A program made the position numbers and the translations under genes. Shown here piece after piece: positions 8,509-50,773 of a stretch of DNA of 64,000 bases (positions within the stretch are counted from its first letter, which is position 1; every line of letters starts with the position of its first letter). The DNA comes from Escherichia coli (GTDB taxonomy: Bacteria > Pseudomonadota > Gammaproteobacteria > Enterobacterales > Enterobacteriaceae), in the NCBI RefSeq assembly GCF_024223415.1, contig NZ_CP100500.1; one strand, 5' to 3'. The notes under the pieces were generated by a model, which was not told the DNA's origin, did no database searches, and was given only the letters and a program-made list of their open reading frames with translations.

Positions 8509-8522
8509 TCGATCTCGTCAAA
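8509..8522 (+). promoter_or_regulatory. Putative FNR-type dyad in frdA promoter region
   Basis: tcgatctcgtcaaa about 130 bp upstream of frdA start; resembles TTGAT-N4-ATCAA; frd operon is known FNR-activated. Confidence 0.35.
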
Positions 8523-8654
8523 TTTCAGACTTATCCATCAGACTATACTGTTGTACCTATAAAGGAGCAGTGGAATAGCGTTCGCAGACCGTAACTTTCA
8601 GGCACTTACCCTGAAGTACGGGGCTGTGGGATAAAAACAATCTGGAGGAATGTC

Positions 8655-28296: not shown

Positions 28297-28372
28297 GCCC
28301 GGATAGCTCAGTCGGTAGAGCAGGGGATTGAAAATCCCCGTGTCCTTGGTTCGATTCCGAGTCCGGGCACCA
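28297..28372 (+). tRNA. pheU: tRNA-Phe (anticodon GAA), pheU-type
   Basis: 76-nt cloverleaf GCCCGGATAGCTCAGTCGGTAGAGCAGGGGATTGAAAATCCCC...GGTTCGATTCCGAGTCCGGGCACCA with encoded CCA; sits where pheU lies relative to yjdC. Confidence 0.97.
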
Positions 28373-28569: not shown

Positions 28570-29832
28570 ATGGCACTGACTGACGCAAAAATCCGGGCTG
28601 CAAAGCACACTGACAAGGCTTATAAACTCACTGACGGGGCTGGCATGTTCCTGCTGGTACATCCTAATGGTTCCCGTTACTGGCGTCTCCGTTATCGCAT
28701 TCTGGGTAAGGAGAAAACTCTGGCACTTGGTGTATACCCGGAGGTTTCTCTCTCCGAAGCTCGTACAAAACGGGATGAGGCCCGAAAACTGATTTCGGAG
28801 GGGATTGACCCTTGCGAACAGAAAAGAGCTAAAAAAGTAGTCCCTGATTTACAACTCTCTTTTGAACATATTGCACGACGCTGGCATGCCAGTAATAAAC
28901 AATGGGCACAATCACACAGCGATAAGGTACTCAAAAGCCTCGAAACACACGTTTTCCCCTTTATCGGCAACCGGAACATCACAACACTCAATACCCCGGA
29001 CCTGCTTATCCCTGTTCGTGCTGCAGAAGCTAAACAAATTTATGAAATCGCCAGTCGTCTGCAGCAAAGAATATCTGCTGTAATGCGTTATGCCGTACAG
29101 TCTGGCATCATCAGATATAATCCTGCTCTGGATATGGCTGGCGCATTGACTACGGTAAAACGCCAGCATCGCCCCGCTCTTGATCTTTCTCGCCTGCCTG
29201 AACTTTTGTCGCGTATTGGCAGTTACAAGGGGCAACCTGTCACCCAGCTTGCCGTTATGCTGAATTTACTGGTTTTTATTCGTTCCAGTGAACTCAGATA
29301 CGCCCGCTGGTCTGAAATTGATATTGACAATGCCATGTGGACTATTCCAGCCGAACGCGAACCCCTGCCAGGCGTAAAATTCTCACACCGGGGCTCCAAG
29401 ATGCGAACACCACATCTTGTGCCACTCAGCAAACAGGCTGTAGCCATACTGACAGAACTACAGACATGGGCTGGTGAAAATGGTCTGATCTTTACGGGAG
29501 CACATGACCCGCGTAAACCAATCAGTGAAAATACTGTAAATAAAGCCCTGAGGGTGATGGGGTATGACACAACCCAGGATGTCTGTGGCCATGGATTCCG
29601 GGCGATGGCGTGCAGTGCATTGATTGAATCAGGTTTGTGGTCCCGCGATGCTGTGGAACGTCAGATGAGCCATCAGGAGCGTAATGGTGTACGTGCTGCG
29701 TATATCCATAAAGCAGAACATCTGGAAGAACGTCGACTGATGCTACAGTGGTGGGCAGATTTTCTGGATGCGAACAGAGATAAGGGTATCAGCCCGTTTG
29801 AATATGCAAAGATTAACAATCCATTAAAATAG
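28570..29832 (+). CDS. int: P4-type tyrosine integrase (island integrase)
   Basis: 420 aa; N-terminal MALTDAKIRAAK...YWRLRYR typical of P4-like integrases; C-terminal catalytic region with R...HGFR...Y; first gene 3' of tRNA-Phe. Confidence 0.9.
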   Translation: MALTDAKIRAAKHTDKAYKLTDGAGMFLLVHPNGSRYWRLRYRILGKEKTLALGVYPEVSLSEARTKRDEARKLISEGIDPCEQKRAKKVVPDLQLSFEHIARRWHASNKQWAQSHSDKVLKSLETHVFPFIGNRNITTLNTPDLLIPVRAAEAKQIYEIASRLQQRISAVMRYAVQSGIIRYNPALDMAGALTTVKRQHRPALDLSRLPELLSRIGSYKGQPVTQLAVMLNLLVFIRSSELRYARWSEIDIDNAMWTIPAEREPLPGVKFSHRGSKMRTPHLVPLSKQAVAILTELQTWAGENGLIFTGAHDPRKPISENTVNKALRVMGYDTTQDVCGHGFRAMACSALIESGLWSRDAVERQMSHQERNGVRAAYIHKAEHLEERRLMLQWWADFLDANRDKGISPFEYAKINNPLK

Positions 29833-30097
29833 TAAGCAGTCCGGGCTGATTGCCCGGACTGCTTTAACTGATTATTTTTCTTTGTAAATGATGACGAAGA
29901 TTGATGTTCTGGCAAGTTACTCCGGCTTCCATTAAAGTCCCTTCGTCATGTTCTTCAGGCTATTTATGACTGTGATTAGCACCAGGAATATCTGGTTTCC
30001 ATGAGAGCAGGTAATAACCCCCGGTGTTTTCGGCTGTTCTGGTATCCTTGTCCAACACAGGCAGTCATTATAAACGGTAAAAAATGTGGATTTGCCC

Positions 30098-31003
30098 CTA
30101 TATTTCCAGACATCTGTTATCACTTAACCCATTACAGGCCCGCTGCCGCAGATATTCCCGTGGCGAGCGATAACCCAACGCACTATGCGGATGCCATTCG
30201 TTATAATGCTCGAACGCCTCTGCAAGGTTCTTTGCTGCCGTTAACCCGTCTGGTTTGGGCATGACACTGATGTAGTCACGCTTTATCGTTTTCACGAAGC
30301 TCTCTGCTATGCCGTTACTCTCCGGACTCCGCACCGCCGTGTTCTTCGGTTCAAGCCCCAACATCCGGGCAAACTGCCGTGTTTCATTAGCCCGGTAGCA
30401 TGAACCATTATCCGTCAGCCACTCTACTGGAGACGCCGGAAGCTCGTTGCCGAAGCGGCGTTCCACCGCTCCTGGCATGACGTCCTGTACTGTTTCACTG
30501 TTGAAGCCGCCCGTAGTGACCGCCCAGTGCAGTGCCTCACGGTCACAGCAGTCCAGCGCGAACGTGACTCGCAGTTTTTCTCCGTTATCACAGCGGAACT
30601 CGAACCCGTCAGAGCACCATCGCTGATTACTTTCTTTCACAGCCACTCTGCCGGTATGTGCCCGTTTCGATGGCGGTACAGCGGTTTTTCGCTCAAGCAA
30701 CAGCGCATTCTGGCGCATGATCCGGTAAATACGTTTGGCATTGATCGCAGGCATACCATCAAGTTCTGTTTGTCTGCGAAGCAGCGCCCATACCCGACAA
30801 TAACCATATGTGGGTAGCTCTCCGATAACATGGTGTATACGGCGAAGCACATCCGTATCATCCGTGTGACGGCTGCGGCGGCCGTCCTTCCAGTCATCGG
30901 CTCGTCTGAGAATGACGTGCAACTGCGCACGCGACACCCGGAGACAACGGCTGACGAAGCTTACTCCCCATCCCCGGGCAATAAGGGCGCGTGCGCTATC
31001 CAC
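30098..31003 (-). CDS. insD: IS2 transposase InsD (OrfB)
   Basis: 301 aa, near-identical to recalled IS2 InsD ([34 protein letters not shown]...). Confidence 0.92.
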
Positions 31004-31326
31004 TTTTTTGCTCGCCCATATTCAACGGCTTCTTTAAGGAGTTCATTTTCCATCGTTTTTTTGCCGAGCAGACGCTGGAGTTCTTTAATCTGCTTCATGG
31101 CGGCAGCAAGTTCAGAGGCAGGAACGACCTGTTCTCCGGCAGCCACAGCAGTAAGACTTCCCTCCTGGTATTGCTTACGCCAGAGAAATAGCTGGCTGGC
31201 TGCCACACCATGTTGCCGGGCAACAAGGGAGACCGTCATTCCCGGTTCAAAGCTCTGCTGAACGATAGCGATCTTTTCCTGTGTAGTACGCCGTCTGCGT
31301 TTCTCCGGCCCTAAGACATCAATCAT
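30961..31326 (-). CDS. insC: IS2 InsC (OrfA, HTH regulator)
   Basis: ORF trimmed to Met ([26 protein letters not shown]...), 121 aa; overlaps insD as expected for frameshift fusion. Confidence 0.9.
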
Positions 31327-31543
31327 CTGTTCTCCAATGACTAGTCTAAAAACTAGTATTAAGACTATCACTTATTTAAGTGATATTGGTTGTCTGGAGA
31401 TTCAGGGGGCCAGTCTAAAATGTATTCACTGTTATGAAATCAATAGTTCTGACGTACTGTTGAATGTGCTTGCGTTCTGAACCTTGTACAACCAGTACAT
31501 TTGATACCGAATTATAAACAAAACATTGCATCCAACTTTTTCA

Positions 31544-31566
31544 ATATGGACAATAGTTGTCCATAT
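31544..31566. promoter_or_regulatory. Perfect 10-3-10 palindrome (operator-like) in leader of helicase-nuclease gene
   Basis: atatggacaa-tag-ttgtccatat, perfect inverted repeat 54 bp upstream of the ATG at 31620. Confidence 0.4.
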
Positions 31567-31619
31567 GGTGGTTTTATATTCGATAAATCAATGGATTTCA
31601 TTGAGTCATAGGACTGGTA

Positions 31620-34600
31620 ATGGATGAAAATGCTTTAGGGTTTGCCTCATACTGGCGCAACTCGCTTGCGGATGCTGAGTCAGGAAAGGGCAGTTTTGAA
31701 CGGAAAGACGCCAAAAATTTCACTCATTGGCATGGGATAGCGGCGGGACGTCTTGACGAAGCGATTGTCAGTAAATTTTTTAAGGGAGAAAAAGACGATG
31801 TCGAAACGGTCGATGTCATCTTGCGCCCAAAAGTTTATTTCCGGTTACTGCAGCATGGTAAGGACCGTTCTGCAGGTGCGCCTGATATTGTTACCCCGAT
31901 AGTGACGCCAGCCTTGCTAAGCCGTGAGGGTTTTTTATATCCGACGCCAGCGACCTCCATTCCCAGAGACCTGCTTGAACCTTTGCCAAAAGGAGCATTT
32001 TCGATTGGTGAGATTGGGCAGTATGACAAATACAAGACGACCCATACCACGTTCTCTATCAACTTTGATGACAGCGTTGATAAGACTGCCGAAACGCATG
32101 AAGAACGGGAAGCACGATATGCCGCCTTGCAGCAGGAGTGGCGTCAATATCTGTATGACTCAGAGAGGCTACTGAAGAGCGTTGCCAGCGACTGGATTGA
32201 AAAACCTGAGCAATATGAACTCGCTGAGCACGGTTATATTGTTAAAACGGCGCAATCTGGCGGTGCCAGTTTCCATATCCTTTCTCTTTATGATCACCTG
32301 CTTGTTTGCAATAAGGATGTGCCGCTCTTCAATCGATTCGCCTCGCGAGAGGTTCATGCTGCAGAGTCTTTGCTGGCCCCTGGAGCAAAATTCAGCGACA
32401 GGCTTGGACACTCCGGAGATAAGTTTCCGCTGGCAAAGGCTCAGCGCGATGCCTTAAGCCATTTTCTGGATGCTAAACATGGCGATATCCTTGCTGTTAA
32501 TGGCCCTCCTGGAACCGGAAAAACCACGCTGGTGCTTTCTATCATCGCCACGCAGTGGGCCAGAGCGGCTCTCGAAAAATCTGAGCCTCCGGTTATTATC
32601 GCGACTTCAACGAATAACCAGGCTGTAACGAACATTATTGAGGCATTCGGGAAAGACTTTTCGCAAGGTTCAGGTGCGATGGCCGGGCGATGGTTGCCAG
32701 AGCTGAAAAGCTTCGGCGCTTATTTTCCCTCAAGCAGCCGTAAAGCTGAAGCAGCCAAAAAATATCAAACTGAAGATTTCTTCAACCAGGTTGAGTCAAA
32801 AGAGTATGTAGAAGATGCACTGCTGTTTTATCTGGAAAAGGCTAAGGCAGCCTTTCCTGAAAAAGAGTGTTCATCCCCTGAAAAGGTCATTGAACTCCTG
32901 CATGGTCAGTTGGCAGCAAAATCCGAGCAACTGATAAGACTGAACGCAACATGGCAAACGTTAAGCCAGATTCGGGCTGCGCGTGAGCTTATTGCTAATG
33001 ATATTGAGCAATATCTCAATAATTTAAATAAATTACTTTCCGGACAAGAACAAAAAATCACTCTACTGAAGAGTGCTAAAACGGAATGGAAAAAATATCG
33101 CGCCGGTGAATCACTGATCTATTCATTATTTTCCTGGCTTCCGGCGGTTCGCAGTAAGCGACAGTACCAAATACAGCTGTTTCTCGAAGATAAATTAGGT
33201 GCGCTGATTGCAGGAAATCAATGGTCTGATCCTGAAACTATCGAAAGTAATATTGATGGGCTGCTCAATTCCGCTGAGCGCGAGCAAACAACATACCGGC
33301 AGCAGATTGACTCCGCCCATGAAATCATTCTTAAAGAACAGCAGGCGGTTCAGGAGTGGCAGAGACTGGCTCTTGATTTAGGGTATGAGGGCGACGAGGA
33401 ACTGAGCTTCTCACAGGCCGATGAACTGGCTGATACGCAGATTCGCTTCCCTGCATTTTTACTGACGACTCACTACTGGGAAGGTCGTTGGCTGATGGAT
33501 ATGGCCAGCATTGATGATCTGCAGGAAGAGAAGAAGAAAAAAGGCGCTAAAGGGGTAACCGCCCGTTGGCAACGTCGAATGAAACTCACTCCATGTGTGG
33601 TGATGACATGCTATATGCTGCCCGGCAATATGCAGATAAGTGAGCACAAAGGACAGCGTAAATTCGAGAAAAGTTATTTGTATGATTTTGCCGATTTACT
33701 CATTGTCGATGAAGCCGGGCAGGTGCTTCCTGAAGTGGCTGCTGCCTCGTTTGCATTAGCTAAGAAGGCATTAGTGATTGGCGATACGGAGCAGATCCCG
33801 CCAATATGGAGTATTGCTCCTGCGATTGATATCGGTAACATGCTGGCGGAAAAAATTCTGTCTGGCAGTACGCAAGAAGAGATTACCGAGAAATATACGG
33901 CAATCGCAGACCTTGGTAAAAGTGCCGCATCTGGCAGCGTTATGAAAATAGCGCAGTTTGCTTCGCGCTATCAATATGATCCCGAACTGGCTCGTGGTAT
34001 GTACCTATATGAACACCGCCGGTGCTACGACAATATTATTGGATACTGTAATACGCTCTGCTATCACGGTAAGTTGTTGCCTAAAAGAGGGCGTGAAGAG
34101 AGCAATTTAATGCCCGCAATGGGGTATCTCCATATTGATGGTAAAGGAGAGCTGGCAAGTAGTGGAAGTCGATATAATTTGCTTGAGGCTGAAACGATAG
34201 CGGTCTGGTTGGCAGAGAACCAGCAAAATATTGAAGCGCATTACGGTAAATCGCTTCATGAAGTTGTCGGTATTGTGACGCCTTTTAGCGCTCAGGTATC
34301 CACTATCAAACAGGTGCTGGGCAAACAAGGTATCAGTACAGGCACGAATGAAAAGTCGCTCACAGTGGGCACCGTGCACTCTCTTCAGGGAGCGGAAAGA
34401 GCGATTGTGATATTCTCGCCAGTCTATTCAAAACATGAAGACGGCGGGTTTATTGATAGCGATAACAGCATGCTGAATGTTGCAGTCTCCCGTGCGAAGG
34501 ACAGTTTTCTGGTCTTCGGCGATATGGACCTGTTTGAGGTCCAGCCAGCCTCATCGCCACGGGGATTACTGGCAAAATACCTCTTTGAGTCAGAGAAGAA

Positions 34601-35135
34601 TGCGCTCTCTTTTGATTATAAAGAGCGTAAGGATTTAAAAACCGCCGGGACCAAAATCTACACACTTCATGGTGTGGAGCAACATGATAATTTCCTGAAT
34701 CAGACATTTGAAAATACCAGTAAACACATCACGATAGTTTCTCCATGGCTGACCTGGCAAAGGCTGGAGCAAACCGGTTTTCTTGATTCCATGATTGCGG
34801 CGTGTTCACGTGGAATTAACGTCACGATAGTCACTGACAGAAGCTACAACACTGAACATAATGATTTTGAGAAGCGAAAAGAGAAGCAGCAGAACTTTAA
34901 AGCGGCGCTGGAGAAACTGAATGCGCTGGGTATTGCTACAAAGCTGGTAAACCGTGTTCATAGCAAAATTGTTATTGGTGATGATGGTTTGCTGTGCGTG
35001 GGATCGTTCAACTGGTTTAGTGCGACACGGGAAGCGCGATATGAACGATACGATACATCAATGGTTTATTGCGGTGATAACCTGAAGGGTGAGATTGAGG
35101 CTATTTATAATAGTCTTGAGAGGCGGCAGGTTTAG
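31620..35135 (+). CDS. Superfamily-1 (Upf1/DNA2-like) helicase fused to C-terminal PLD-family (HKD) nuclease domain; candidate single-gene defence protein
   Basis: 1171 aa. Walker [10 protein letters not shown] (nt 32502-32528, aa 295-303); Walker B/motif II DEAGQ (nt 33708-33722, aa 697-701); SF1 motifs [18 protein letters not shown] and [16 protein letters not shown]; C-terminal HSKIVIGDD...GSFNWF = HxK(x4)D(x6)GSxN PLD signature (nt 34959-35030). About 290-aa N-terminal region and about 390-aa insert between Walker A and B have no motif I recognise. Confidence 0.75.
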
Positions 35136-35243: not shown

Positions 35244-36743
35244 TTATCTTCTGTCCGGAAGAATCAGAGGCTGTGGTTTCAGACTGTCTGCCGGTACATT
35301 CCTGTCTCCGTTAAAAACAATAACGGGTTCATTATCTTCGTCTGTCAGCGGATTGAATGGCGGTATATTTTCAGTACGAATGCCGGTCAGCCACTGAAAA
35401 ATACCTGCGAAATGACGGGCACTGATTTTTCTGCTGACGGACTGATGAGACGTGATGTCACTGGCGGTAATAATCAGGGGAACGCTGTAGCCTCCTTGTA
35501 TATGGCCATCATGATGAACAGGATTAGCACTGTCGCTGACCGACAGACCATGGTCAGAAAAGTAAAGCATGGCAAAATGACGGGAGTGCCGGCGAAGGAT
35601 ACCATCAAGCTGACCGAGAAAGTTATCCAGTTTACTGATGCTGGCGAGGTAACAGGCAATCTTTCGGGGATACTGCTCCAGGTAATGATTCGGCCAGGAG
35701 TTAAGTCGGTCACACGGATTCGGATGAGAGCCAATCATGTGCAGGAATATCACCTTCGGAGAGGATTTATCCGCCAGTGCACGTTCTGTTTCCTGTAACA
35801 ACAACATGTCATCCGTTTTACGGGAAGCAAAGCTGCCTTTCTTGAGGAAAACGGTATGCTCCGCATCAGAAGCAATAACAGAGATGCGTGTATCATGCTC
35901 CCCCAGTTTTCCCTGATTGGATATCCACCATGTGCTGTATCCTGCTTTTGCTGCCAGCGCCACCACGTTGTTGCCGGAGTCAGGGTTCTGCTCATAGTCA
36001 TAAATCAATGTCCGGCTCAGGGAAGGTACGGTACTGGCTGCTGCCGATGTATAGCCGTCAATAAATAAACCGGGAGCCGTATTCAGCCATGGTGTGGTTG
36101 GCACGGGATAGCCATATACCGACATATAATCCCTGCGCACACTCTCACCAGTAACGATAACAATCGTGTCATACAACGGTGTTCCCGGCAGGATTTTCCA
36201 GTTGTCAGCCCCGTGCTGACTCAGTTGTTTATAACGCTGCATTTCACGCAATGTGTCAGTTGTTCCCACAACAATTCCTTTAACCATCCGCAACGGCCAG
36301 CTGTTTACAGAGCATAATACGAACAGCAGCAGTGCCAGCCAGTTACGGTGACCGCGGTGGTGTGTCCGCCAGAAAATCACCATGAATACCAGAATCGCGG
36401 CACTGACCAGAAAATGATAAACAGGAATCATCCCGGTAAACTCTGCAGCCTCATCAGCCGTGGTCTGCAGCAACGCGACAATAAAACTGTTGTTGATTTT
36501 ACCGTACGTCATACCCGCAGGCGCATACAGTGCACAACAGAACAGAAATAACAGCGTTGTAATGGATGTGAGGGTATTTCTGTGTGCAAGGAGCAGAAGG
36601 AGAAACAGAAGCAGCACATTTCCTGTGGCATTCTTCTCAGTGTATCCGCATGCAATTGTGATTATCACAGAAATAACAAAAAAGAATAAAAACAATAAAA
36701 TCCGGGGTGTGTCGCCCGGACAAAACAGTTTTCTGATATTCAT
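35244..36743 (-). CDS. Sulfatase-family inner-membrane protein, probable phosphoethanolamine transferase (YhbX/YbiP/OpgE-like)
   Basis: 499 aa; N-terminal multi-TM region then periplasmic domain with alkaline-phosphatase-superfamily motifs (VTGESVRRDY, HMIGSHPNPCD, YFSDHG); AT-rich flanks. Confidence 0.6.
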   Translation of the reverse strand: MNIRKLFCPGDTPRILLFLFFFVISVIITIACGYTEKNATGNVLLLFLLLLLAHRNTLTSITTLLFLFCCALYAPAGMTYGKINNSFIVALLQTTADEAAEFTGMIPVYHFLVSAAILVFMVIFWRTHHRGHRNWLALLLFVLCSVNSWPLRMVKGIVVGTTDTLREMQRYKQLSQHGADNWKILPGTPLYDTIVIVTGESVRRDYMSVYGYPVPTTPWLNTAPGLFIDGYTSAAASTVPSLSRTLIYDYEQNPDSGNNVVALAAKAGYSTWWISNQGKLGEHDTRISVIASDAEHTVFLKKGSFASRKTDDMLLLQETERALADKSSPKVIFLHMIGSHPNPCDRLNSWPNHYLEQYPRKIACYLASISKLDNFLGQLDGILRRHSRHFAMLYFSDHGLSVSDSANPVHHDGHIQGGYSVPLIITASDITSHQSVSRKISARHFAGIFQWLTGIRTENIPPFNPLTDEDNEPVIVFNGDRNVPADSLKPQPLILPDRR

Positions 36744-36924
36744 CGGAGTATATCGACAACATTATTATGAAGAGAACAGGATAATAAAAATCAGAAATTA
36801 TCTGTAAAACAGATAACAGACAACCCTGCAGCAATAGACTGCAGGGTGTTTCTGTTTAATTGCAGAAGATATACAATTATATTAATTACAGAATATTCGT
36901 GATTATCTCTCAGGAACAGTGTTG

Positions 36925-37665
36925 TCAGAAGTTATAAGTCACACCAAGCATGATGTCATGACTTTTAACATCAACTTCTGACTTATATTTATCGCCCCAC
37001 TCGTCCTTGTAACTCACACTGCTGTCACCTGCATCAAGATAGCGATAGCTGAGGTCCAGAGCGATATCCGGGGTTACGTCATAGCGGACACCCGCGCCAA
37101 GGTTCCATGCGAAGTTGTCAGCAGAGCCTGAACGTGACAACGATTCGCGACCACTGCTTCCGTACTCATAATCCCAGGTACTGATACCGGTTGTTTTCTG
37201 GTGAATTCTGGCGTAGCCAATCCCTGCAGATATCCAAGGTGTGAATGCGCTGTCATTCCGGAAGTCATAGTACGCATTCAGCATTAGTGTGTTGACTGAC
37301 ACCTCATTCTTCAGGTCATCACGCCAGTAACCACCTGACCAACTGTCTTTATCTACGTTATACTTCGAATCAGCTTTTCCACGAGCGTAAAACTCCAGTT
37401 CTGTACGAACCGGAATACTGAACTGCGGATAAAAATCATAACCAGCCGCGATACCACCACTGAATACCGTATCATGGTCATCGCCGCCTTTATACTTTGA
37501 CGTTTCTTCCTCATCTCCTGACAGGAAACGCTGGTCTGAAAGTGACACCACAGAGGTACCGGCTTTACCGGTCAGATAAAAACCGCTTTTACCTTCCTCA
37601 GCACCTGCATTTGCTGCAAATACACAGGCTGCGGCCACCACTGAAACAGCAAAAACCTTTTTCAT
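36925..37665 (-). CDS. Outer-membrane beta-barrel protein, MipA/OmpV-like
   Basis: 246 aa; signal peptide MKKVFAVSVVAAACVFAANA, alternating amphipathic strands, C-terminal ...GVTYNF with terminal Phe; resembles MipA family but unverified. Confidence 0.5.
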   Translation of the reverse strand: MKKVFAVSVVAAACVFAANAGAEEGKSGFYLTGKAGTSVVSLSDQRFLSGDEEETSKYKGGDDHDTVFSGGIAAGYDFYPQFSIPVRTELEFYARGKADSKYNVDKDSWSGGYWRDDLKNEVSVNTLMLNAYYDFRNDSAFTPWISAGIGYARIHQKTTGISTWDYEYGSSGRESLSRSGSADNFAWNLGAGVRYDVTPDIALDLSYRYLDAGDSSVSYKDEWGDKYKSEVDVKSHDIMLGVTYNF

Positions 37666-37741
37666 TTCAATTATCTCCGTTATTGCTCCGTTGCTGCAAG
37701 CAGTACTCAGTGCATTTTAAAACCCGCCATGCGATAGCCTC

Positions 37742-37782
37742 AATCGAATAAAATCGATCGAATCGATCGATGATATCGATCG
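37742..37782. repeat. Short tandem/palindromic ATCGATCG repeat tract
   Basis: caatcgaataaaatcgatcgaatcgatcgatgatatcgatcg: three or four copies of atcgatcg immediately upstream of the MipA-like gene. Confidence 0.6.
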
Positions 37783-38152
37783 TCATTAACCAGAAATTTT
37801 TATCGTATTCAGTCAGCACAGACACAACAAATGCATGCCATGCAGGCAGCCATGCCCCGTCGCGACAGATGGTAGCAGTGGGCTGGCGAAGAGCAGAATT
37901 AATAAAATTTGTTTATTCTGTCAGGAGATAAGGTGTCACCTGTTCATGAACACAATTAAGGAAGAGACATACATGAGCTGACTGGCAGTCCAGAGTGCAT
38001 GCGGTTACAAGCCGGAAAGGTGAACCGGTATAACCAGTGAGCAGAGTTTGTGAAGGGGGGATATAAAAAAGCCCACTGCATGGCAGCGGGTAAAGAGTCA
38101 GTTATTTCCGGCGTTTTTCAAGGTAGTTGTCGCCTGATGTAATAAAATTACG

Positions 38153-38524
38153 TTATGCCGCTTCTTTTTCTGGATTCAGATAAACTGCCTGAATGAGTTC
38201 CCAGTCACGCAACTGTTTGCTCCAGCGCTCAGGATGACGCTTGCGAGCTTCGCGATAAACTTTTTTTCTGGCTTCCAGTATTTGTGCATCAATTCCGCGA
38301 TGGCGTTCATCCGGAGTAACATACTTAATACCGCTGTGCTTGTGTTCCAGGTTGTACCATTGCGTGAACTTGCTTAACCAACTTCTGGCTTCATCTATGG
38401 TTCGAAAACCATTCTCCGGCCACCATGAACAATACTTAATCGTCCGGAAGAGCGATTCGGAATAAAGAAGTGTTACTGGCAGTTCTTTCATCGCATCAGT
38501 GAAAACCAGCAGGGCACTGCTCAC
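38153..38524 (-). pseudogene. Transposase C-terminal fragment (DDE integrase core, IS3/IS481-like)
   Basis: 123-aa ORF with ...WYNLEHKHSGIKYVTPDERHRG... typical of transposase C-termini; lacks N-terminal domain. Confidence 0.45.
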
Positions 38525-38942
38525 CAGAGCAACACAGGAAAGTGAACCCGAACAAAAGTTCCTGTACCATTTTCTCCCAGCAGACGTGAGGCTTGTTCCA
38601 GTGACTCTGGTATACGTCCCAGCCGGACATCAAGTGCGCCGATGGCTATTGCCTGAAATCGCATCGTACAGCAAATCACCAACAGGACACCGACAGACAT
38701 TAAAGGTAACCCCCTGTAATCCAGTAGTTCCGACAGCCAGCGGTCATTTAGGGAGTCAGAAAACCAATCGCCAGAATCGTGCCCGGAAAGGCATAACCCA
38801 GCGACGCCACTCTCATCACACCGCGCCTGAACAGTGGCATAGCGTTGAGGAATTCCGGGCATTCCAGACTACGAGCAGACTGACAAAAATTACGACAAAG
38901 CGTTGAAGGAAGCCAGCGCGCGGACTGACAGGACTTTACCAT
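38521..38942 (-). pseudogene. ABC-transporter permease fragment (ThiP/FbpB-like), frameshifted
   Basis: Two overlapping short ORFs containing permease-like segments LGYAFPGTILAIGFLTP and ...IPESLEQASRLLGENGTGTFVRVHFPVL; far too short for an intact permease. Confidence 0.35.
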
Positions 38943-38991
38943 AAAAACACAGGCTAACCGCGCCTGCGTTTTTAATGACGGATAAACAGAA

Positions 38992-40971
38992 TCAGGTGCC
39001 GATTATGCCGCCGTCGGCTTTTACGATAACGACAGTTGAGGAGCGCGGACGACCAGCCTTATCGCCGTCAGGCCAGCTTGATACTGCCGTCGGATGCTGC
39101 GGATCGCTAAGCCCTTCGCTTGGCTCGCCAGGGTGCTGGATGTTAATAAACAGCGTCCGGTTATCCGGAGTGAACGCGATGCCGGTGATTTCGCAGCCGC
39201 GCGGGCCGGTCAGGAAGCGGCGGAACTCATTGGTACCGGGGATCGTCGCCACCATCTGGTTGTTGCCCATGCCTTTGTAATCTTTAATATTTATGGTTGA
39301 TGACGACACGTCGGTCTGGATCCATAGCACGCCGCGGTGATCGAAGCTCAGGCCATCGGCGCTGCCGAATTCCGCACCCTTCATGCTGCCTTTGGTTTCC
39401 GGTTTGTCTGTATCGGTGCGACCGCCCATCACAAGAATATCCCAGGCAAACTGCAGCGCGGTCGGGTCACCGTTATGCTCCAACCAGTGAATGATGTGGC
39501 CGTAAACGTTTTTGGCGCGCGGGTTGGCCGCATCCACTGGCGCTTTTCCTTCCGTACCGCGATCGCTGTTGTTGGTGAGCGTGCAGTAAACGCTGCCGGC
39601 GTGATATGGATCGACCGCAATCCACTCCGGGCGGTCCATTTTAGTGGCCCCCACGGCGTCTGCCGCCAGACGGGTTTTAATCAACAGGTCGCCCTGGTTT
39701 TCAAACCCTTTACTGGCGTCGAGCCCATTTTGTCCGAACACCAGCGGTAGCCACTCGCCTTTGCCGTCGTCGTTAAATTTCGCCACGTACAGAGTGCCTT
39801 TTTCCAGCAGGTGCATGTTGGCTTTGCGATCCTGCGGGTTGAATTTTCCTTCCGAGACAAATTTATATATGTATTCGAATTTCTGGTCATCGCCCATATA
39901 GACCACAACGCGGTTATCCGGGGCAATTGTCACCGCTGCGCCTTCGTGTTTGATGCGACCAAGCGCGGTGTGCTTGCGCGGCACTGAATGCGGATCGTAT
40001 GGATCGATTTCCACCACCCAGCCGAAGCGGTTCGGCTCGTTCGGCGTGGCGTCGACGCTGAACCTTTTATCCACTTCGTTCCAGCGGTAAGAGTCGTCGC
40101 TCCCGCTGATACCGTAACGTTTTTCCAGCGGGTTCATCTCTGCTTTTTTTACGAAAATATCGGACCAGTTCTCTTCACACGTCAGATAGGTGCCCCACGG
40201 CGTAAATCCGTTGGCACAGTTCTGCATGGTGCCGAGAATGATTTCGCCTTTCGGATCGTCAACTGTTTGCATCAGTGGGTTATGCAGCGCCGGACCGGTG
40301 ATTTTCATCGGCGTGTTAACGGTGATGCGGCGTGCGAACGATGACGGGCGCACCACTTCCCAGCCCAGGGGCACTTTTTTTACTTCAATGACCGACACGC
40401 CCATCGCGTTCTGGCCTTTAAGAGCTTTATCGGCGCTCCAGTTGGCATCGCCATCTTTAAACAGTAGACCGTTATCGATGTATTCATGGTTTATGGCAAG
40501 CAGGCCGTGATCGGAGCTGTTCCCGCCCTGCGGCAGGCTAAACCACGCCATGCCGTCGTGGTGCATCCCGGCCTGCGCCGCCTGTTCTTCCGTGGTGTTG
40601 CTACCGTCGGTTTTAAAAACCGGCAGATTTCCGGCAATCCCGGTGGCGTCGCCCCATTTGTAGAAGGGCTTCGCGATGTATCCTTCCGGCACGATAACGG
40701 TATCTTCCGTGGAAACCGGCAGGCTGGTGAAACCGAGCGTCGTCGCTTTGCCGAGGTTACCGCTTGCTTTGGAGACCACTTTCGCCAGCGCGTTTTCCTG
40801 TTTCAGCAGAAATGGGAACGCTGCCGCGGCACCGGCGACCGTGCCTGCCTGTAACAGACGGCGGCGTGACAAATAGACTTCCGCCACCTGCGAAAACGCG
40901 CGGTTATCGCTCGGGTTACTGATTTCTTCACTATGCTCACGTTTGAATAAAGTTTTTAACGGTCTGCCCAT
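38992..40971 (-). CDS. Tat-exported PhoX-family alkaline phosphatase (DUF839-like)
   Basis: 659 aa; twin-arginine signal SRRRLLQAGTVAGAAAAFPFL; length and composition as recalled for PhoX family; not part of K-12 core. Confidence 0.6.
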   Translation of the reverse strand: MGRPLKTLFKREHSEEISNPSDNRAFSQVAEVYLSRRRLLQAGTVAGAAAAFPFLLKQENALAKVVSKASGNLGKATTLGFTSLPVSTEDTVIVPEGYIAKPFYKWGDATGIAGNLPVFKTDGSNTTEEQAAQAGMHHDGMAWFSLPQGGNSSDHGLLAINHEYIDNGLLFKDGDANWSADKALKGQNAMGVSVIEVKKVPLGWEVVRPSSFARRITVNTPMKITGPALHNPLMQTVDDPKGEIILGTMQNCANGFTPWGTYLTCEENWSDIFVKKAEMNPLEKRYGISGSDDSYRWNEVDKRFSVDATPNEPNRFGWVVEIDPYDPHSVPRKHTALGRIKHEGAAVTIAPDNRVVVYMGDDQKFEYIYKFVSEGKFNPQDRKANMHLLEKGTLYVAKFNDDGKGEWLPLVFGQNGLDASKGFENQGDLLIKTRLAADAVGATKMDRPEWIAVDPYHAGSVYCTLTNNSDRGTEGKAPVDAANPRAKNVYGHIIHWLEHNGDPTALQFAWDILVMGGRTDTDKPETKGSMKGAEFGSADGLSFDHRGVLWIQTDVSSSTINIKDYKGMGNNQMVATIPGTNEFRRFLTGPRGCEITGIAFTPDNRTLFINIQHPGEPSEGLSDPQHPTAVSSWPDGDKAGRPRSSTVVIVKADGGIIGT

Positions 40972-41393
40972 TGCGGTTTCCTTTCAAAAAATCGATTTCA
41001 AGGGGAATCATTTTTATGCACGTGAGTCTACGGAAAGATTGTTACGGAAATATAACAATTGTCATAAAAAACCGGCGATAAAATCATCTATGGTCGGGAC
41101 GCGGTTTCAGGTATGATGTGAGGCTAGAATTCTGAACGCTCTCTTTTGTTGAGCATATATGGACGTCCCGGGTGAGGCAAGTACTGGTTCGATGCGGTTT
41201 GCGACCATATATCCGGCGTCGTTAGTAGGTTCAATGACCTGCGCCATGATGTTATCCGGGCCCTATTTCCTAATCACTACACCGGTATTTGATTACCCAG
41301 GTCAACTTCAGACTGTTACAGGGGCGGTAGCCGTTATCTCATCAGTGAATGTAAACTCAGTTAAAAATATTTTCTATAACTTACTGTTTTTAT

Positions 41394-41603
41394 TTAATTC
41401 ATCACAACGGCCTTCTGCATATTAAAATCAATACTATCGCTCAAAACACGCCAGATGATTCTTGTCAGCTTGTTCGCCAGCGCACCAGTGGTTTTCAGGA
41501 ACCCTCGACGGGCTTCCATCCTTTGCAGACAAATACTCAGACTGTCAGTGAGCTTTTTCACACAGCGCATTACAGACTGAAATGGCACACTGAATTTGGT
41601 CAC
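41394..41603 (-). pseudogene. Transposase C-terminal fragment (IS110-family-like)
   Basis: 69-aa ORF ending ...ALANKLTRIIWRVLSD..., resembling IS110-family transposase C-termini. Confidence 0.3.
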
Positions 41604-41649
41604 CTGAACAGAGGTGATATGCTCACCTCAGAACAAGACTGGTGCCCTA

Positions 41650-42350
<701 letters not shown>

Positions 42351-42356
42351 CTAGCT

Positions 42357-42393
<37 letters not shown>

Positions 42394-42732
42394 TAATTAC
42401 ACTGTGGGTTGACGCCGGAAGAATCAGAGAACAGATACCGTTCTTACTGTAAAACGTGGCTAATATTAATTGAGCACTGCAGTGTTCAGAGCACAAAGAA
42501 GAAAAAAGATGTGTGCGAATGCCTGTAATGTGTTAAAAGAATGTTCCGCGTTTCCGGTACGCTTTTCGTAACTAACAATGCAGGGTGACGTAACGCTGGT
42601 TGTGCCGGAAACGCGTCCCTCCCCCTATCTTTCCTGTTTGGATTTGCCCCTATATTTCTGGATTATCCGACAAAACCGGCGTGAAGTATTACTCTCGTCG
42701 CCCAGCACCATAAGGATAACGCCCATAAAATC

Positions 42733-43098
42733 ATGAAACTTTTCTTCCAGATTGGATACAATCAGGCCGTATCCCGTATTACAGGCTTATCACGTGTGAC
42801 AGTCAGTCTCTGGGTGTGTTCAGGAACATTCCCTGAAATGTCAACCCGGCCTCCAGAGCGAGGACTTCTGGACCCATGGAGGGAGTGGTTAAAAGAGCAA
42901 CGAGAAAGTGGTAACTTCGGCGCGTGGCTGCAAGGATGGCAGCTGATGCTGCGGCTATATGTGAGGCAATCAGCAGTCGCTGGAATAATGGGGGTTGTCG
43001 AAAGTCATGTAAATCGACTAAAAATGCTGAAAGGCCAGATGTATGGTCGAGCCGGATTTGAACTACTCAGGCAGAGGGTCATGAGTCCACTGGCATGA
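42733..43098 (+). CDS. Hypothetical protein with AlpA-like HTH N-terminus
   Basis: 121-aa ORF; N-terminal ...AVSRITGLSRVTVSLWVCSGTFPE resembles AlpA-family phage/ICE regulators; weak. Confidence 0.3.
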   Translation: MKLFFQIGYNQAVSRITGLSRVTVSLWVCSGTFPEMSTRPPERGLLDPWREWLKEQRESGNFGAWLQGWQLMLRLYVRQSAVAGIMGVVESHVNRLKMLKGQMYGRAGFELLRQRVMSPLA

Positions 43099-43306
43099 AA
43101 ATCTCCATCCAGGTTGCGTAAGAGCCACTTTTCATCCGTCGTCGATATCTGGGATAGCCATAGTGAAATAAAAAGCTGTCTGAATTAAATTATTTTGCAC
43201 ATATATTTTAATCCTGCACTGAATTAAGAATGGGTAATCAGTGACCGCTTGGACGGTCACTTTTAAGAGAAGGCATTAACAGAGAATGGTAAACAGGCTC
43301 AATATA

Positions 43307-43757
43307 TTATGTTGTTGGCACTACAGATGAATGATGGGATGATATTTTCCAATCCTTTCCATCCCACTCATAAGCGAAACTATAGCGTGCTGAAACTTGT
43401 TTTTTATCTTCAAAAGTAAACGTGTAATTCCCTGTATCAAGAGCCATATTGCATCCAATGCGAATAGTTCTGAAGTTTATTTCTCCAACAGTTTTTTTTT
43501 CAAAAAATGCTCAAAATAGTCAACTCTTTCTGCATCTGTAATCCTAATTTTTTTTGATACTGTGGGCAGTAAGATCGCATCACTTAAATAGTTATCAGCA
43601 ACCTTCTTGGCATCACCTGTTTTTAATGATTCATTCCAGCGATCGAATAACCTTTCAATGTCTTTACTATCTACCCGAATACACTTAACATTATCTACGT
43701 CACTTGCCCACGACGCTCCAGAAAACAGACACAGAATTAAAATATTTATTTTTTCAT
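43307..43757 (-). pseudogene. Small secreted NTF2-like (SnoaL/DUF4440-like) protein gene interrupted at two homopolymer tracts
   Basis: AGGAGG then ATG at 43755-43757 followed by A6 and immediate stop; +1 frame encodes signal peptide KINILILCLFSGASWASD...; second shift at A9 tract (plus-strand T9, 43492-43500); restoring A7 and A10 gives about 150-aa ORF ending ...WDGKDWKISSHHSSVVPTT. Confidence 0.5.
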
Positions 43758-43991
43758 AACTCCTCCTGATCAGCCTGAAACTTTTTTAAAGTTTAATCAT
43801 ATTAATACAGTGCAACTATTTGATAGTAAAAACGATGTTCTCTATTTTGTTAATAGATACTTCCTATTGTGTATATATTATGAGATTATTAAGAATAATA
43901 CTCTCTGGGTCGTAGAGACAGGGTATAAGTCACAGGCTGGTGTGGTTCGGATGTTCTTGCCCCCTCAATATCAGACTGCTATTGTATCTTA

Positions 43992-44370
43992 AGTTAACGT
44001 TATCCGCTGACGTCGATATTCCCGTGGTGAGAGATAACCTAACGCACTATGCGGATGGTTTTCATTGTAATGCTCGAACGCCTCTGCAAGGTTATGCAAT
44101 GCCGTTATTACATTCAGTTTCGGCATGAACGCGATGTAGTCTTCATTCACGTTTTCACGAACCTTTCTGCCATTCTATTGCTCTGAGGGCTACTGACTGC
44201 CGTCGTGCAGGGCTCCAGATTCAACTCTCTGGCGAATTGCCGTGTTTCATGAGCCGTATAAGCCGAACCGTTATCCGTCCGCCACTGGATTGCTCGTTCC
44301 GGTCCTTTATCGCCAAAGCGTTTTTCTATCGCTCCTAACATCACATCCTGCACTGTCGGCTTTATCGTAA
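43992..44370 (-). pseudogene. Diverged IS2-group 3' fragment (partial InsD-like orfB plus terminal repeat)
   Basis: About 80% nucleotide similarity to the IS2 3' region at 30120-30520; encodes ...[45 protein letters not shown] similar to InsD. Confidence 0.7.
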
Positions 44371-44655
44371 CCTCCCGTACTGGTCACGGGCAGACTGTTC
44401 ATCATGTTAAACCCAGCCGCTGTCAGATCATGCACCGGCCGGATGGCGGGCTGACCTGCCCCGCCGCGCTGCTGCCCGCCAATCCATTTCTTACCTTCCT
44501 TCCCGGTGGCCTGACGTCCGGCCTCGTCCCCTTTCACCGCATCACCGTCACCGCTGTTCACCACCTTCTTGTACTCTTCCAGCATCGCTGGCCTGCGTCC
44601 ATTTGCTGCGATCAGAAAAGTCCATCATCCGTTTTGCCATGTTCTGGCAGTTCAG

Positions 44656-45117
44656 TTACGCCTTGTCGAAAGCCACATTCGCCTGCAGCACACCGTTGGT
44701 GATCATGTCGTACAGGCCGGGGTTGGCACGCTGTATCACCATCGCCGGCAGACTGGCAGCGGCGCCGGTCGCCCCCTGAATCACATCCCCCATCAGATTT
44801 TTAAAGCCGTCGGTCAATCCGTTAAGATGATTACCCACCGTGGTCTTCAGGTCAAAGTTGCCGCACATCAGATCGCTGCTCCAGCCCAGGTCCATACCCA
44901 GCTTCTGCATGTTGCTGCGCGTGGCCAACTGTGAGATCACCGAGCCGCCACCCAGCGTATAGAACAGTTTGTCGGATACGGCGCCATCCACGGATTTCCC
45001 GTAACCGAACGTGCTGTCATTCAGTTTCGGCAGGGAAAGAAGATCAGCCATCGCCGGAATACTGCAGTACAGCATCACACTCAGTGCCACCATACCTGTT
45101 TTCATCTTCATCATCAT
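44656..45117 (-). pseudogene. Conjugative-element transfer protein fragment (TraH-like?), 3'-truncated
   Basis: 153-aa ORF with signal peptide MMMKMKTGMVALSVMLYCSIPAMA; reading frame breaks downstream and abuts the IS2-like fragment; family assignment tentative. Confidence 0.3.
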
Positions 45118-45123
45118 GGTTCC

Positions 45124-46098
45124 TTAAAAATTCGTACTGCCAAGGAATCGCTGCCCGCGCTTTTCGAAGCAGCTGTAAGGCTGCCACAGTGCAAAGGCTG
45201 CATTACCGTTCTCCGCTGCCTGGTGTTCACCATCCGGGAAAACGGCACAGGAACGCGACACTGACGGCGTCAGTCGCTGCCATTTGTGATTGCGGGTGCC
45301 GGTGTTTTCCTCCACCGCCTCCGGGGGCCACTAGCCGTCACGTTTCACGCCCTTAACCTCCCTGTAGACATGCGACTCCCCCATCCGCGTGATAATGTCG
45401 GCCACCCGCTGAGCCCCCACCGCCGCGGCCCGGTCATCATCGGTCTGCATCACAAAACCACTCCGGTGATAAACGCTCCCCCACATGTTTTTATCGGCCT
45501 AGCTGCCAATCTCGCGTTTGCCGGGAACCTGTGCCTCTGGATACAGGGATTCAGGTAATCCCGTTCGCTAGACGATGCTGTCCAGGGTACTGAGGAAATA
45601 GGCCATGGCCGGTGTCACCGGTGAATCACAGCTGAATCCGGGTACCATCCCGCCGATAAGCTGTGTGGCCGGATGACCCAGCGCATCTGCGTATTTGAAA
45701 CGAATGGCTGAACGGCGCTTCCCCTGTATTTTCATATCCGCCGGATTTCCCCCGCCGGCACTCAGCCCGGACAGGCCGTCAGTGATGGCATTCTCCGGGC
45801 CACCTGCGGTCCGGCTGACCAGCGACATCTCTTTCCAGGGATTACCACCCGGTGCCGTATAGGTGGAAATAACCACTTCCGGGATGAAATGTGTCACCTT
45901 CACGGAAATTCTGACCGTACAGCCAGACGCGCTGCAGTAAAGCCAGTAACAAATCCCGCTGACACGCCAGCTGATATAGTCCGGTGCCGCAGTACTGGCG
46001 ATAATGCTGGCGGTGTTCAGTGATACAGACGCCAGGGGCAGTGATGCCACACTCAGTAACAGCACGCCGGTACGCAGACGACATTTCAGGGACATCAT
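45124..46098 (-). pseudogene. Conjugative-element transfer protein (TraU-like?) split by frameshifts/stops
   Basis: 176-aa N-terminal ORF with signal peptide and Cys-rich segment (ICYWLYCSASGC), continued in other frames to about 45124; total about TraU size. Confidence 0.3.
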
Positions 46099-46211
46099 GG
46101 CTGCACTCCTCCCTCAGCACGGATTTTCCCGGCCATCACCACATCCATGGTGCCGTAAACCACCTCACTGTCATCAAACACCACGGCAGGGTATTTCTTC
46201 ACGCCCAGCGA

Positions 46212-46490
46212 CTAGGCATGTGCCACATCGCGGTAATGACCGGCCAGTTCCGCCTGCATCGTCTGCCATTCGGGAGACTTCATACGTACCCTGACCACCG
46301 ATTCAGCCTCACCCGCATCAGCAGGCAACAGGCCCCAAAAGCGGCTCTGAAGCTGCTCAGGCGCATCCAGCAGAACCACCCTGACACCATCAGGAGGATT
46401 AACGGGAAGATGCTGAGAATCGGTATAAATTGTTGTGCCGGCAGACGCTGCCAGCGGCAGGAAAAACAGGGAACAGAAAATCCGGTACAT
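46212..46490 (-). CDS. Small secreted protein of conjugative-element remnant
   Basis: 92-aa ORF with signal peptide MYRIFCSLFFLPLAASA; upstream of the TraU-like fragment on same strand. Confidence 0.3.
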   Translation of the reverse strand: MYRIFCSLFFLPLAASAGTTIYTDSQHLPVNPPDGVRVVLLDAPEQLQSRFWGLLPADAGEAESVVRVRMKSPEWQTMQAELAGHYRDVAHA

Positions 46491-46686
46491 CGCACGCTGT
46501 CAGTCAGATATTATCTGACTGACAGCGTGCGAAGAAAGCGCTCATTTATCAGCAATAAATTAAAAACGGGATTAAAAAATTACGGTGGGATCCGGGGAAG
46601 TGTATCTGCCAAGCATAACAGACAGTCTGTGATTATACCCGGCCTTTCACAAAGCCGGGGAACTGATTCATACCAAGTGGTGATTT

Positions 46687-46938
46687 TCAACAATAAGTAT
46701 AATGAGGTTGTCCCGGCACCGGTGGCAGTGGTTCGAGATAGACGTCATCAACAAAAACACAGGGGAATTTTTCAACTGCACATCCAGCACGCTCAGACAT
46801 TACCTTCAGACTGATACCATGTTTCTCAGCATCAATAAAGAGGACATCTGCCCCTGTTTCATCCCGGAGATTTGTCGCATGATGCATGATCCGGTGTACT
46901 GAAGGACATGTTTTGTAACCAAAAACACATATACGCAT
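46687..46938 (-). CDS. Small thioredoxin-fold/glutaredoxin-like protein (monothiol CPS motif)
   Basis: ORF trimmed to Met (MRICVFGYKTCPSVHRIMHH...), 83 aa; beta-alpha-beta start with CP motif; weak. Confidence 0.3.
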   Translation of the reverse strand: MRICVFGYKTCPSVHRIMHHATNLRDETGADVLFIDAEKHGISLKVMSERAGCAVEKFPCVFVDDVYLEPLPPVPGQPHYTYC

Positions 46939-47424
46939 GTTGCACCTCCTGATCACTGGTTGACGCCGATAATAAAACAATAATGTGAGCGTAAAAAATG
47001 CACCTCATACCACATTTCTGTAAAAGGCTCTGGCTATCACTGCAAAAAGCAAAATCTTAATTCCAGCATCACTTGTTACTCTCATTCCGTCACTTATATT
47101 TACCCACATGGCGATGTATTTAATTACTGCCCATAAGAATAAAAGCCGCTGGCGGATTATTTCTTTATTACCCGGATGCGGTCACAAGCCCACACATCGT
47201 CAACTACCTGCCGGTAATATTAACTGTCAGAAGAACGCATACATCCGGATGTTTACAGAGTCGCGCGCCTGGTCACAGGTGACAACAGAAGTATGCCATA
47301 CTAAAGGAGTAAACGGCGGGTCACTGGTGATCAAACACCTGCATCGTGTGTTGCTGCCACTGCCCTCAGGTGACAGAGGCAGCATCTTTACGTATTATAA
47401 TGCGTTATATCGGGTTTGTTGTTA

Positions 47425-49512: not shown

Positions 49513-49561
49513 ATCTTCTCTCCGATTATATTAATCAGAGAGAAGATAAACAAACGCAAGA

Positions 49562-49580
49562 GATAATGAGAATGATTTGC
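49562..49580. promoter_or_regulatory. Fur box upstream of iha-like receptor
   Basis: gataatgagaatgatttgc, 15/19 match to Fur consensus GATAATGATAATCATTATC, about 50 bp upstream of the receptor start. Confidence 0.65.
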
Positions 49581-49824
49581 TTTTGGTTTTTACATAAAAA
49601 AGTAAAAAATTACAAAATATTACATAAGGTTCTACTATACCCCGAATTTCAGTTGAGGACGTTCTTTTCTCTAGGGGAAAGTAACGGATAGCAATCGTTG
49701 ACGATCCATATCGGATTTTTGCACTATGGGTATTTATCCAATCTTTATCAGTTTCTTGTCCTTGGATATGTTAATCATACACTATCGGATATTTCGTACA
49801 TCAGACAGGTGAATATAATTAATA

Positions 49825-50109
49825 ATGAGGAGTTTTATGGACAATAGAACAATTACTCTGCAGGAATTACTCGAGTACATGTCAATGCTTCGAGACGACA
49901 TGAATGCTCTCACGGTTGCATTTTCATATCTGGCTTCATCGCTTCCTAAGGAACAGATGATACAAATACTGGCATTCATTCATTTTGAATCAAATAATTC
50001 CAGATGGTCTTCAGAACAGCAGAAATCTTTCAAATGGCTAGCATCACTACTGGAGGGCTGTTATACAGTTCACACAAACATTTTTGATATACCATCAAAG
50101 AACCACTAG
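49825..50109 (+). CDS. Hypothetical small protein (AT-rich, island cargo)
   Basis: 94-aa ORF with ATG start, divergent from iha-like gene; no recognisable motif. Confidence 0.3.
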   Translation: MRSFMDNRTITLQELLEYMSMLRDDMNALTVAFSYLASSLPKEQMIQILAFIHFESNNSRWSSEQQKSFKWLASLLEGCYTVHTNIFDIPSKNH

Positions 50110-50432
50110 TACATTATGATACATTCCCTCTGAAATATATTTCTACTTTGAGCGCCTCTGACTTTATGAGGCGCTTTGTCCAGCAAACCAAACATACTCG
50201 CTGGAAACAGAGTAAAGTATTATTATCCCCGATACATCTATATTTTACAACAGCGCATCCATATATTAATTAACGATGCAGTTAAGTTCCCCATTCTACC
50301 CAATTTACTGTTTTTGTTGTTTGAAAGAAGACTCTCATTAAGTGAGAGCCATCTGTAAGTATCCCGCATAATCGCTCCATTCATATTTAGAGATCATCCG
50401 GAATAATCAATCTGATAACGAAGAAAATCGCT

Positions 50433-50558
50433 ATGCGTAAAGCCCGTATTACTGAGTATTAGATCATCGCTGTAATTAAATCGGTTGAAACCGGACGAAC
50501 AATTAAAGATGTTTGTCGGGAAGCCGGTATTTCTGAAGCCACTTACTACATCTATTGA
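50433..50558 (+). pseudogene. IS3-family orfA fragment with in-frame stops
   Basis: MRKARITEY*IIAVIKSVETGRTIKDVCREAGISEATYY - HTH region typical of IS3-family OrfA. Confidence 0.5.
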
Positions 50559-50773
50559 CTACCTCAGTTTTGCAAGCACTGATTCTGGTTTTGGATTGTT
50601 GCTTACATCTATCCGGCATCAGGAAAACCTGTGCCCAAATAGGGAATCCACACACAATCGCCTCTACAACTGGACGACCTCTGAGGCCAGTACAAAAATC
50701 AGGTTCCGATTGTGCAGGTGCAACCCGTCACCATTTCTCAGTACGCTGCAACTTTTGCTGAAAGAGATTAACT

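Follow-up and report, generated by a model that had tools for sequence, protein, structure and literature searches.

We analysed a 64,000-nucleotide stretch of Escherichia coli DNA (hereafter, the window), which is 100% identical to the chromosome of the pig isolate E. coli E41 (NZ_CP069707.1). Read from left to right, the locus under study consists of a tRNA-Phe gene that is the attachment site of an island, the tyrosine integrase of that island, a copy of IS2, and the gene mkoC of the type II Mokosh defence system (Table 1). Here a well-known mobile element occupies a site that is new but unremarkable, beside a known and published defence gene. The finding is of little importance in itself, given that IS2 was matched in 4924 of the 5426 complete E. 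coli genomes and that type II Mokosh has been published. What it offers is a locus that can be annotated exactly, as regards the IS2 isoform, the AAATG duplication, mkoC and the pheV island in which they lie.

Table 1. Features at the integrase-mkoC locus, in window coordinates
Feature	Position	Strand	Basis or remark
tRNA-Phe (pheV), island attachment site	28297-28372	+	ARAGORN; yqgA upstream in E41 RefSeq annotation
Island tyrosine integrase (P4-type), 420 aa	28570-29832	+	RefSeq WP_077521113.1; NCBIfam integrase domain E = 3e-73
13-bp GC-rich hairpin, terminator-like, just past integrase stop	29834-29864		Pattern scan
AAATG target-site duplication, left copy	30082-30086		Sequence; empty-site alleles with single AAATG
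IS2, complete, 1331 bp	30087-31417	minus	Isoform 96.0% identical to K-12 IS2A
IRR, 41-bp right inverted repeat, terminus ...AAATCCA	30087-30127	minus	Faces integrase side; repeat definition PMC3299598
orfB (InsD/TnpB, DDE catalytic part), 301 aa	30098-31003	minus	Zero stop codons
orfA (InsC/TnpA), 121 aa	30961-31326	minus	Identical to K-12 protein
A6G programmed -1 frameshift window, AAAAAAG on minus strand	31003-31009	minus	IS coordinates 409-415
P_IRL, inward promoter TGATAGTCT	~31362-31370	minus	Just inside IRL; directed away from mkoC
IRL, 42-bp left inverted repeat, terminus TAGACTGG...	31376-31417	minus	Faces mkoC; repeat definition PMC3299598
AAATG target-site duplication, right copy	31418-31422		Sequence
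Conserved mkoC leader module, -145 to -1	31475-31619	+	Only upstream DNA common with the SG150/L006/Salmonella type
Perfect 10-bp inverted repeat ATATGGACAA-TAG-TTGTCCATAT	31544-31566		Pattern scan; 54-76 bp upstream of ATG
mkoC, type II Mokosh, 1171 aa, intact; SF1/Upf1-like helicase and PLD nuclease	31620-35135	+	PADLOC, Pfam

The IS2 element, mkoC and the surrounding island

IS2, which is among the best-characterised insertion sequences, belongs to the IS3 family and undergoes copy-out/paste-in transposition via a minicircle. The junctions of the window copy read ...ACGGTAAAAAATG|TGGATTTGCCCC...(IS2)...GGGGGCCAGTCTA|AAATGTATTCAC..., and on its own, minus strand the element starts with TAGACTGGCCCCCTGAATC... 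(IRL) and ends with ...GGGGCAAATCCA (IRR). The span first noted for the insertion, 30082-31422, therefore comprises IS2 together with both copies of AAATG, and the original prediction described the element exactly to the base. Both IS2 protein models of NCBIfam matched over their full length and above their cutoffs, TnpA (NF006928) with 275.8 bits against 229 and TnpB (NF006918) with 697.7 bits against 597. RefSeq annotates the transposase as an intact programmed-frameshift product and carries no pseudogene mark. The role of the A6G frameshift window in IS2, as well as the placement of TGAT (P_IRL) at IS positions 48-51, has been described (PMC3299598). The same study reports that the -35 in IRR forms, with the terminus of IRL, the promoter Pjunc in the minicircle (PMC3299598). 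Guided by it, and reading the sequence by the 17-bp spacer rule to position the Pjunc hexamers, we identify the outward -35-like hexamer in IRR as TGGAAA.

By every sequence-level test, the element is an IS2. It is intact, as had been claimed for it: with both ends, OrfA, OrfB and the A6G window complete, it is full-length and coding-competent, and all sequence requirements for transposition are present. Copies in other genomes were mostly 95-99% identical to it, with only 292 records at 99% or above, and the window copy belongs to the variant commonest in non-K-12 E. coli.

The neighbouring gene had been put forward as a candidate for defence. It is a known and named defence gene and no mere candidate, being matched in PADLOC by MkoC of type II Mokosh (E = 0, 1693.5 bits, model positions 1-1135 of 1136). 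Pfam places AAA_11 at residues 272-492 and 679-729, AAA_12 at 777-969 and PLDc_2 at 1028-1138, and neither the Walker A motif (residue 295, GPPGTGKT) nor the HxK(x)4D motif of the PLD nuclease (residue 1114, HSKIVIGD) is disrupted. For type II Mokosh, Millman et al. (10.1101/2022.05.11.491447) found that the ATP-binding and PLD catalytic motifs are both required for defence, and supplementary file 11 of that work (Millman et al. 2022) marks SG150, from E. coli 5-366-08_S1_C1, as validated. The SG150 protein is 96.0% identical to the window MkoC over the 399 residues shown. The full-length protein of L006 (2016C-3878), which is near-identical to that of SG150, differs from E41 MkoC at 46 of 1171 positions. 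All of the sequence-level tests identify the window gene as mkoC, and its 96% identity to the validated SG150 system suggests that E41 MkoC would protect against phage. In 2016C-3878 (NZ_CP029747.1), the stretch 3552-10172 holds genes for an HNH endonuclease, a hypothetical protein, MkoC, a restriction endonuclease and a TIR-domain protein, beside a prophage integrase.

Besides the element itself and the mkoC leader, two features lie between the integrase gene and mkoC. The hairpin just past the integrase stop was flagged on the minus strand; being palindromic, it could form on either. The second is what is left, in degenerate form, of the C-terminal part of a phosphoethanolamine-transferase gene (...FFTVYNDCLCWTRIPEQPKTPG...), about 170 bp long and on the minus strand (~29933-30086 and, on the other side of IS2, 31423-31432), which is an annotated pseudogene fragment in JNEC-KY208. 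Since the IS2 target lies at the 5' edge of this dead remnant, no functional gene was broken by the insertion. An intact phosphoethanolamine-transferase gene, to which the remnant is unrelated, lies at 35244-36743 in the window, and the notion that the leader is a duplicate of it was dropped, as neither blastx nor blastn gave a match.

Other strains also carry insertion sequences in this position. In F829 (NZ_OY754443.1), an independent IS2 occupies the integrase-mkoC spacer at 3820-5150, in the same orientation and with a TCACG duplication, at a site that corresponds to about window position 29946, roughly 137 bp further upstream. It is followed there by ISKpn26 and IS1, to which most of mkoC has been lost, the gene being truncated by ISKpn26. 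In VTB97420v, an IS2 end lies inside mkoC. An ISEc11 in FDAARGOS_944, considered as a further leader insertion, sits in the integrase instead. The integrase-proximal slot gathers IS elements, as E41, F829 and VTB97420v illustrate.

Further along, the remainder of the pheV island (35244-52000) encodes a phosphoethanolamine transferase, an outer membrane protein, a PhoX family protein and the siderophore receptor/adhesin iha. Decayed remains of an integrating conjugative element, among them TIGR03756 and TIGR03757 pseudogenes, and numerous IS fragments are found there too. At 42639-42658, among other transposase pseudogenes, lies a solo 20-bp IS2 IRR terminus (TGGATTTGCCCCTATATTTC) with no adjoining IS2 sequence, left over from an earlier copy of IS2. 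The stretch 44004-44356 contains an IS3-family relative that is 71% identical to IS2. The pheV island is a mosaic, degraded pathogenicity island.

Empty and filled sites

The empty site was sought with a 401-nt query in which the flanks of IS2 were joined with one AAATG, centred on the junction ...AAACGGTAAAAAATGTATTCACTG..., and matches with at least 80% coverage were counted in 5426 complete E. coli genomes. At least 738 of these, ABU 83972, ST131, S88 and O104:H4 C227-11 among them, have the site without interruption, and the best match, in Br_112_kylling, is 100% identical. In a 2701-nt search, the empty alleles measured exactly 1365 bp, that is, 2701 less 1331 and 5. A 5-bp repeat would arise at random with a chance of about 1 in 1000, and such a chance match as the origin of the flanking repeat is ruled out by the empty-site alleles, which have a single AAATG; the target duplication is real. 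The original prediction had joined the flanks to reconstruct the empty site and had concluded from the two ends and the repeat that this was a simple insertion and no recombination scar. For the window strain that conclusion stands, since the joined-flank site was found, and the predicted sequence is present verbatim in hundreds of genomes.

The filled site, sought with junction-spanning queries, occurs in three of the 5426 genomes: E41, AR_0085 and GPEC1031. The insertion had also been called probably recent. It is indeed rare and, measured against the island, young, though E41 is not the only strain to have it. Both the left and the right IS2 junctions are identical in E41 and AR_0085, and the island that carries them lies at pheV beside yqgA in the former and at pheU beside dicD in the latter. 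GPEC1031 retains an intact right junction (IS2|AAATGTATTC, with mkoC next to it), and its left junction is on the other strand, at a distance of about 28.6 kb. Because the two junctions are separated in this way, the arrangement in GPEC1031 points to an inversion between two inverted IS2 copies, mkoC included. That the same insertion is found in AR_0085 (at pheU) and in GPEC1031 indicates that it is older than the spread of the island.

The copies of IS2 at this shared site are not the same. E41 and AR_0085 are the same all the way from tRNA-Phe up to the IS, and mkoC, over 3.5 kb, shows 4 differences between them; inside IS2 there are 21, of which 19 fall within 30623-30901. Across the filled sites, the IS2 copies differ by 18-28 nt (1.4-2.1%) in clustered tracts, and the flanks by no more than 0.1%. 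This pattern suggests gene conversion or recombination among IS2 copies. It could also be taken to mean that IS2 entered a hotspot three separate times, always at one position and in one orientation, and that the filled sites do not descend from a single event; on that account, elements that differ by up to 2.1% between flanks that differ by at most 0.1% would be expected, and the second IS2 in the same spacer of F829, together with non-random IS2 insertion as reported in work that appears in the reference list of PMC3299598, would fit as well. Yet the junctions are identical to the base and of one orientation, in islands whose flanks are otherwise identical, and the F829 insertion lies elsewhere, with a different duplication (TCACG). 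The differences, moreover, come in tracts, as in AR_0085, which is what gene conversion would be expected to leave, and GPEC1031 has demonstrably recombined with another IS2 copy in its inversion, an event that yields chimeric elements. Independent hotspot hits are less parsimonious than gene conversion, and we consider them very improbable.

A full-length IS2 transposed into the 451-bp integrase-mkoC spacer of the tRNA-Phe island and duplicated AAATG. Under the single-insertion history that we favour, this would have happened once, in an island lineage that is otherwise 99.9-100% identical to the empty-site alleles. The insertion would then have reached at least three strains, being found at pheV in one, at pheU in another and in an inverted arrangement in a third, and parts of the element's interior would have been replaced through gene conversion by, or recombination with, IS2 copies elsewhere. 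The main practical consequences would be one more IS2 donor, predicted to be active, and a portable patch of homology that may drive rearrangements next to mkoC. The inversion in GPEC1031 shows that IS2 has already been a recombination substrate beside mkoC, and exemplifies the reshuffling of integrase-proximal defence slots by insertion sequences. The filled alleles of E41, AR_0085 and GPEC1031, set beside empty ones such as that of Br_112_kylling, also provide natural, isogenic-like pairs with which the effects of an insertion sequence on a defence gene can be studied.

The mkoC leader and the prospect of IS2 control

Two types of mkoC leader exist. The leader of E41 and that of the SG150/L006/Salmonella type are homologous only over the last 143-145 bp, where they are 83-88% identical. 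The leader module is the most AT-rich stretch of the region (34.5% GC, in a given range of 34-38%), and within it TTGCA(T/G)-N16/17-GACAAT and TATATT are conserved. SG150 gave defence in E. coli when cloned together with 326 bp of its own upstream DNA, taken "to include the native promoters" (10.1101/2022.05.11.491447). The last 143 of those 326 bp are homologous to the E41 leader and the other 183 bp are unrelated to it, and the same boundary is seen in Salmonella. The native mkoC promoter presumably lies within the -145 to -1 module.

No strong sigma-70 consensus promoter was found in 31423-31619, where a relaxed scan gave weak candidates only, and for this reason the position of the promoter is drawn only from conservation and from the heterologous construct. 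Sigma-70 and terminator scans of 29800-31750 returned no more sites than shuffled sequence does. In the mkoC leader, the sole scored site was the AT-rich palindrome, which scored as terminator-like. In an Rfam search of 29700-31800 at E <= 1, neither the leader nor the junctions matched an RNA family, and the folding of the leader RNA is not distinctive (z = -1.46). Both leader types keep the core of the palindrome, TGGACAATAGTT(G/A)TCCA, with changes that are not compensatory; the palindrome resembles a protein operator more than it does an RNA hairpin. No obvious regulator gene lies near it. Phage and plasmid collections yielded only three small Salmonella records, with the SG150 leader type, and so contributed no independent third context.

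The original prediction proposed that mkoC expression may be IS-controlled in this strain, and the anatomy of the locus speaks against this. IS2 ends 203 bp before the mkoC ATG at 31620 (202 nt with the right AAATG copy counted) and 52-58 bp upstream of the -145 to -1 module, so that the module remains unaltered. With the orientation read against K-12 IS2A, IRL (31417) points toward mkoC and IRR (30087) toward the 3' end of the integrase gene, and the transposase frames and P_IRL run away from mkoC. IS2 fusion promoters are made up of the outward -35 of IRR and a -10 that the flanking DNA supplies (PMC9330008, PMC3299598). The IRR flank has no usable -10 at 17-18 bp spacing (the hexamers there are ATTTTT and TTTTTT), and nothing sensible lies there for an outward -35 to drive. 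Both features of a fusion promoter that the sequence allows to be tested fail, the wrong end being directed toward mkoC and a correctly spaced -10 being absent. As for distance, promoters inside an IS3-family element have to be no further than about 150 bp from a reporter if expression is to be detectable (PMC12095673). The IS ends tested in that work, the right end of IS2 (2R) included, were picked for having no detectable promoter activity (PMC12095673).

There are nonetheless four routes by which IS2 might raise or lower mkoC expression measurably: the displacement of silencing or activating DNA, a block to read-through from the integrase, outward transcription from IRL, and binding of OrfA/OrfAB or DNA bending at IRL. 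There is precedent for such control in the activation of ampC, acrEF and neoR by IS2, which occurs via fusion promoters (PMC9330008); the known outward -35 is, however, in IRR, and it is IRL that faces mkoC. The only candidate promoter at the IRL flank is a junction-spanning site, TGGAGA-N15-TAAAAT (31395-31421). The terminal TA of IS2 and the duplicated AAAT here make up TAAAAT (31416-31421), which matches the -10 consensus in 5/6 positions, and TGGAGA, 15 bp upstream, matches the -35 in 4/6. A 15-bp spacer is poor, though, and the combined 9/12 match is at chance level, the scan being expected to yield 2.5 +/- 1.4 sites per 1950 nt. Even without the insertion, the site has comparable A-rich strings that resemble a -10 (GTAAAAAATG).

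Displacement deserves separate consideration. IS2 moves 254 bp of native upstream DNA away from mkoC, with which H-NS binding, DNA curvature or integrase read-through could change, and a leader as AT-rich as this one (34.5% GC) is typical of H-NS-bound, horizontally acquired DNA. It also favours IS2 control that the leader remaining next to mkoC has no predicted strong consensus promoter. The case for an untouched promoter is weakened by the SG150 construct, in which the 183 bp of unrelated upstream DNA, or the vector, could have contributed transcription. The end of the IS, on the other hand, lies 58 bp beyond the conserved module. Nor is there any sign of selection for a particular regulatory geometry, because the filled site is rare (3 of 5426 genomes) and the independent IS2 of F829, 137 bp upstream, lies beside a truncated mkoC.

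Taken together, these features of the sequence make an effect of IS2 on mkoC expression, in either direction, unlikely. We hold it to be far less probable still that the IRL terminus and AAATG act as a new outward promoter (31395-31421), or that a loss of silencing DNA has occurred, such that Mokosh expression would be reset in a small island lineage. Were this so, phage resistance or the cost of autoimmunity would be reset with it, and a defence gene would be tuned by an insertion sequence through IRL, an end not known for that. The reading that we prefer, with good though not complete confidence, is that of one simple IS2 insertion which spread with the island and which, because the putative promoter module is untouched, is most likely neutral or nearly so for Mokosh expression.

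Comparison with known systems

The window copy can be compared with K-12 IS2A, which interrupts yaiX in MG1655. The two are alike in their length of 1331 bp, their IRL and IRR termini, the identical 121-aa OrfA, the 301-aa OrfB, the register and IS coordinate (409) of the A6G slippery site, and the 5-bp duplication. They are set apart by 53 nucleotide differences and by about 15 amino-acid substitutions in the OrfB of the window copy.

The mkoC gene is likewise close to the type II Mokosh system SG150, with which it shares a single 1171-aa Upf1-like SF1 helicase with a C-terminal PLD nuclease, the 96% identity, the motifs and the -145 to -1 leader. The contexts differ, however. In the window, mkoC occupies the integrase-proximal slot of a tRNA-Phe island; its counterpart lies in a prophage-adjacent defence cluster (HNH, restriction endonuclease, TIR). 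The leaders upstream of -145 are unrelated, and it is there that IS2 sits in E41. The presence of mkoC in two contexts implies that the mobile cassette consists of the gene and about 145 bp of leader.

With respect to regulation, the precedents are ampC::IS2 (Jaurin and Normark 1983) and acrEF::IS2 (PMC9330008). The present locus resembles them in that IS2 precedes a chromosomal gene for which the amount of expression has phenotypic consequences. In the known IS2 fusion promoters, the -35 of IRR abuts a -10 in the flank with 17-bp spacing, and the element lies inside or next to the promoter. Here, by contrast, it is IRL that faces mkoC, the element ends 203 bp before the ATG, and the flank of IRR is without a usable -10.
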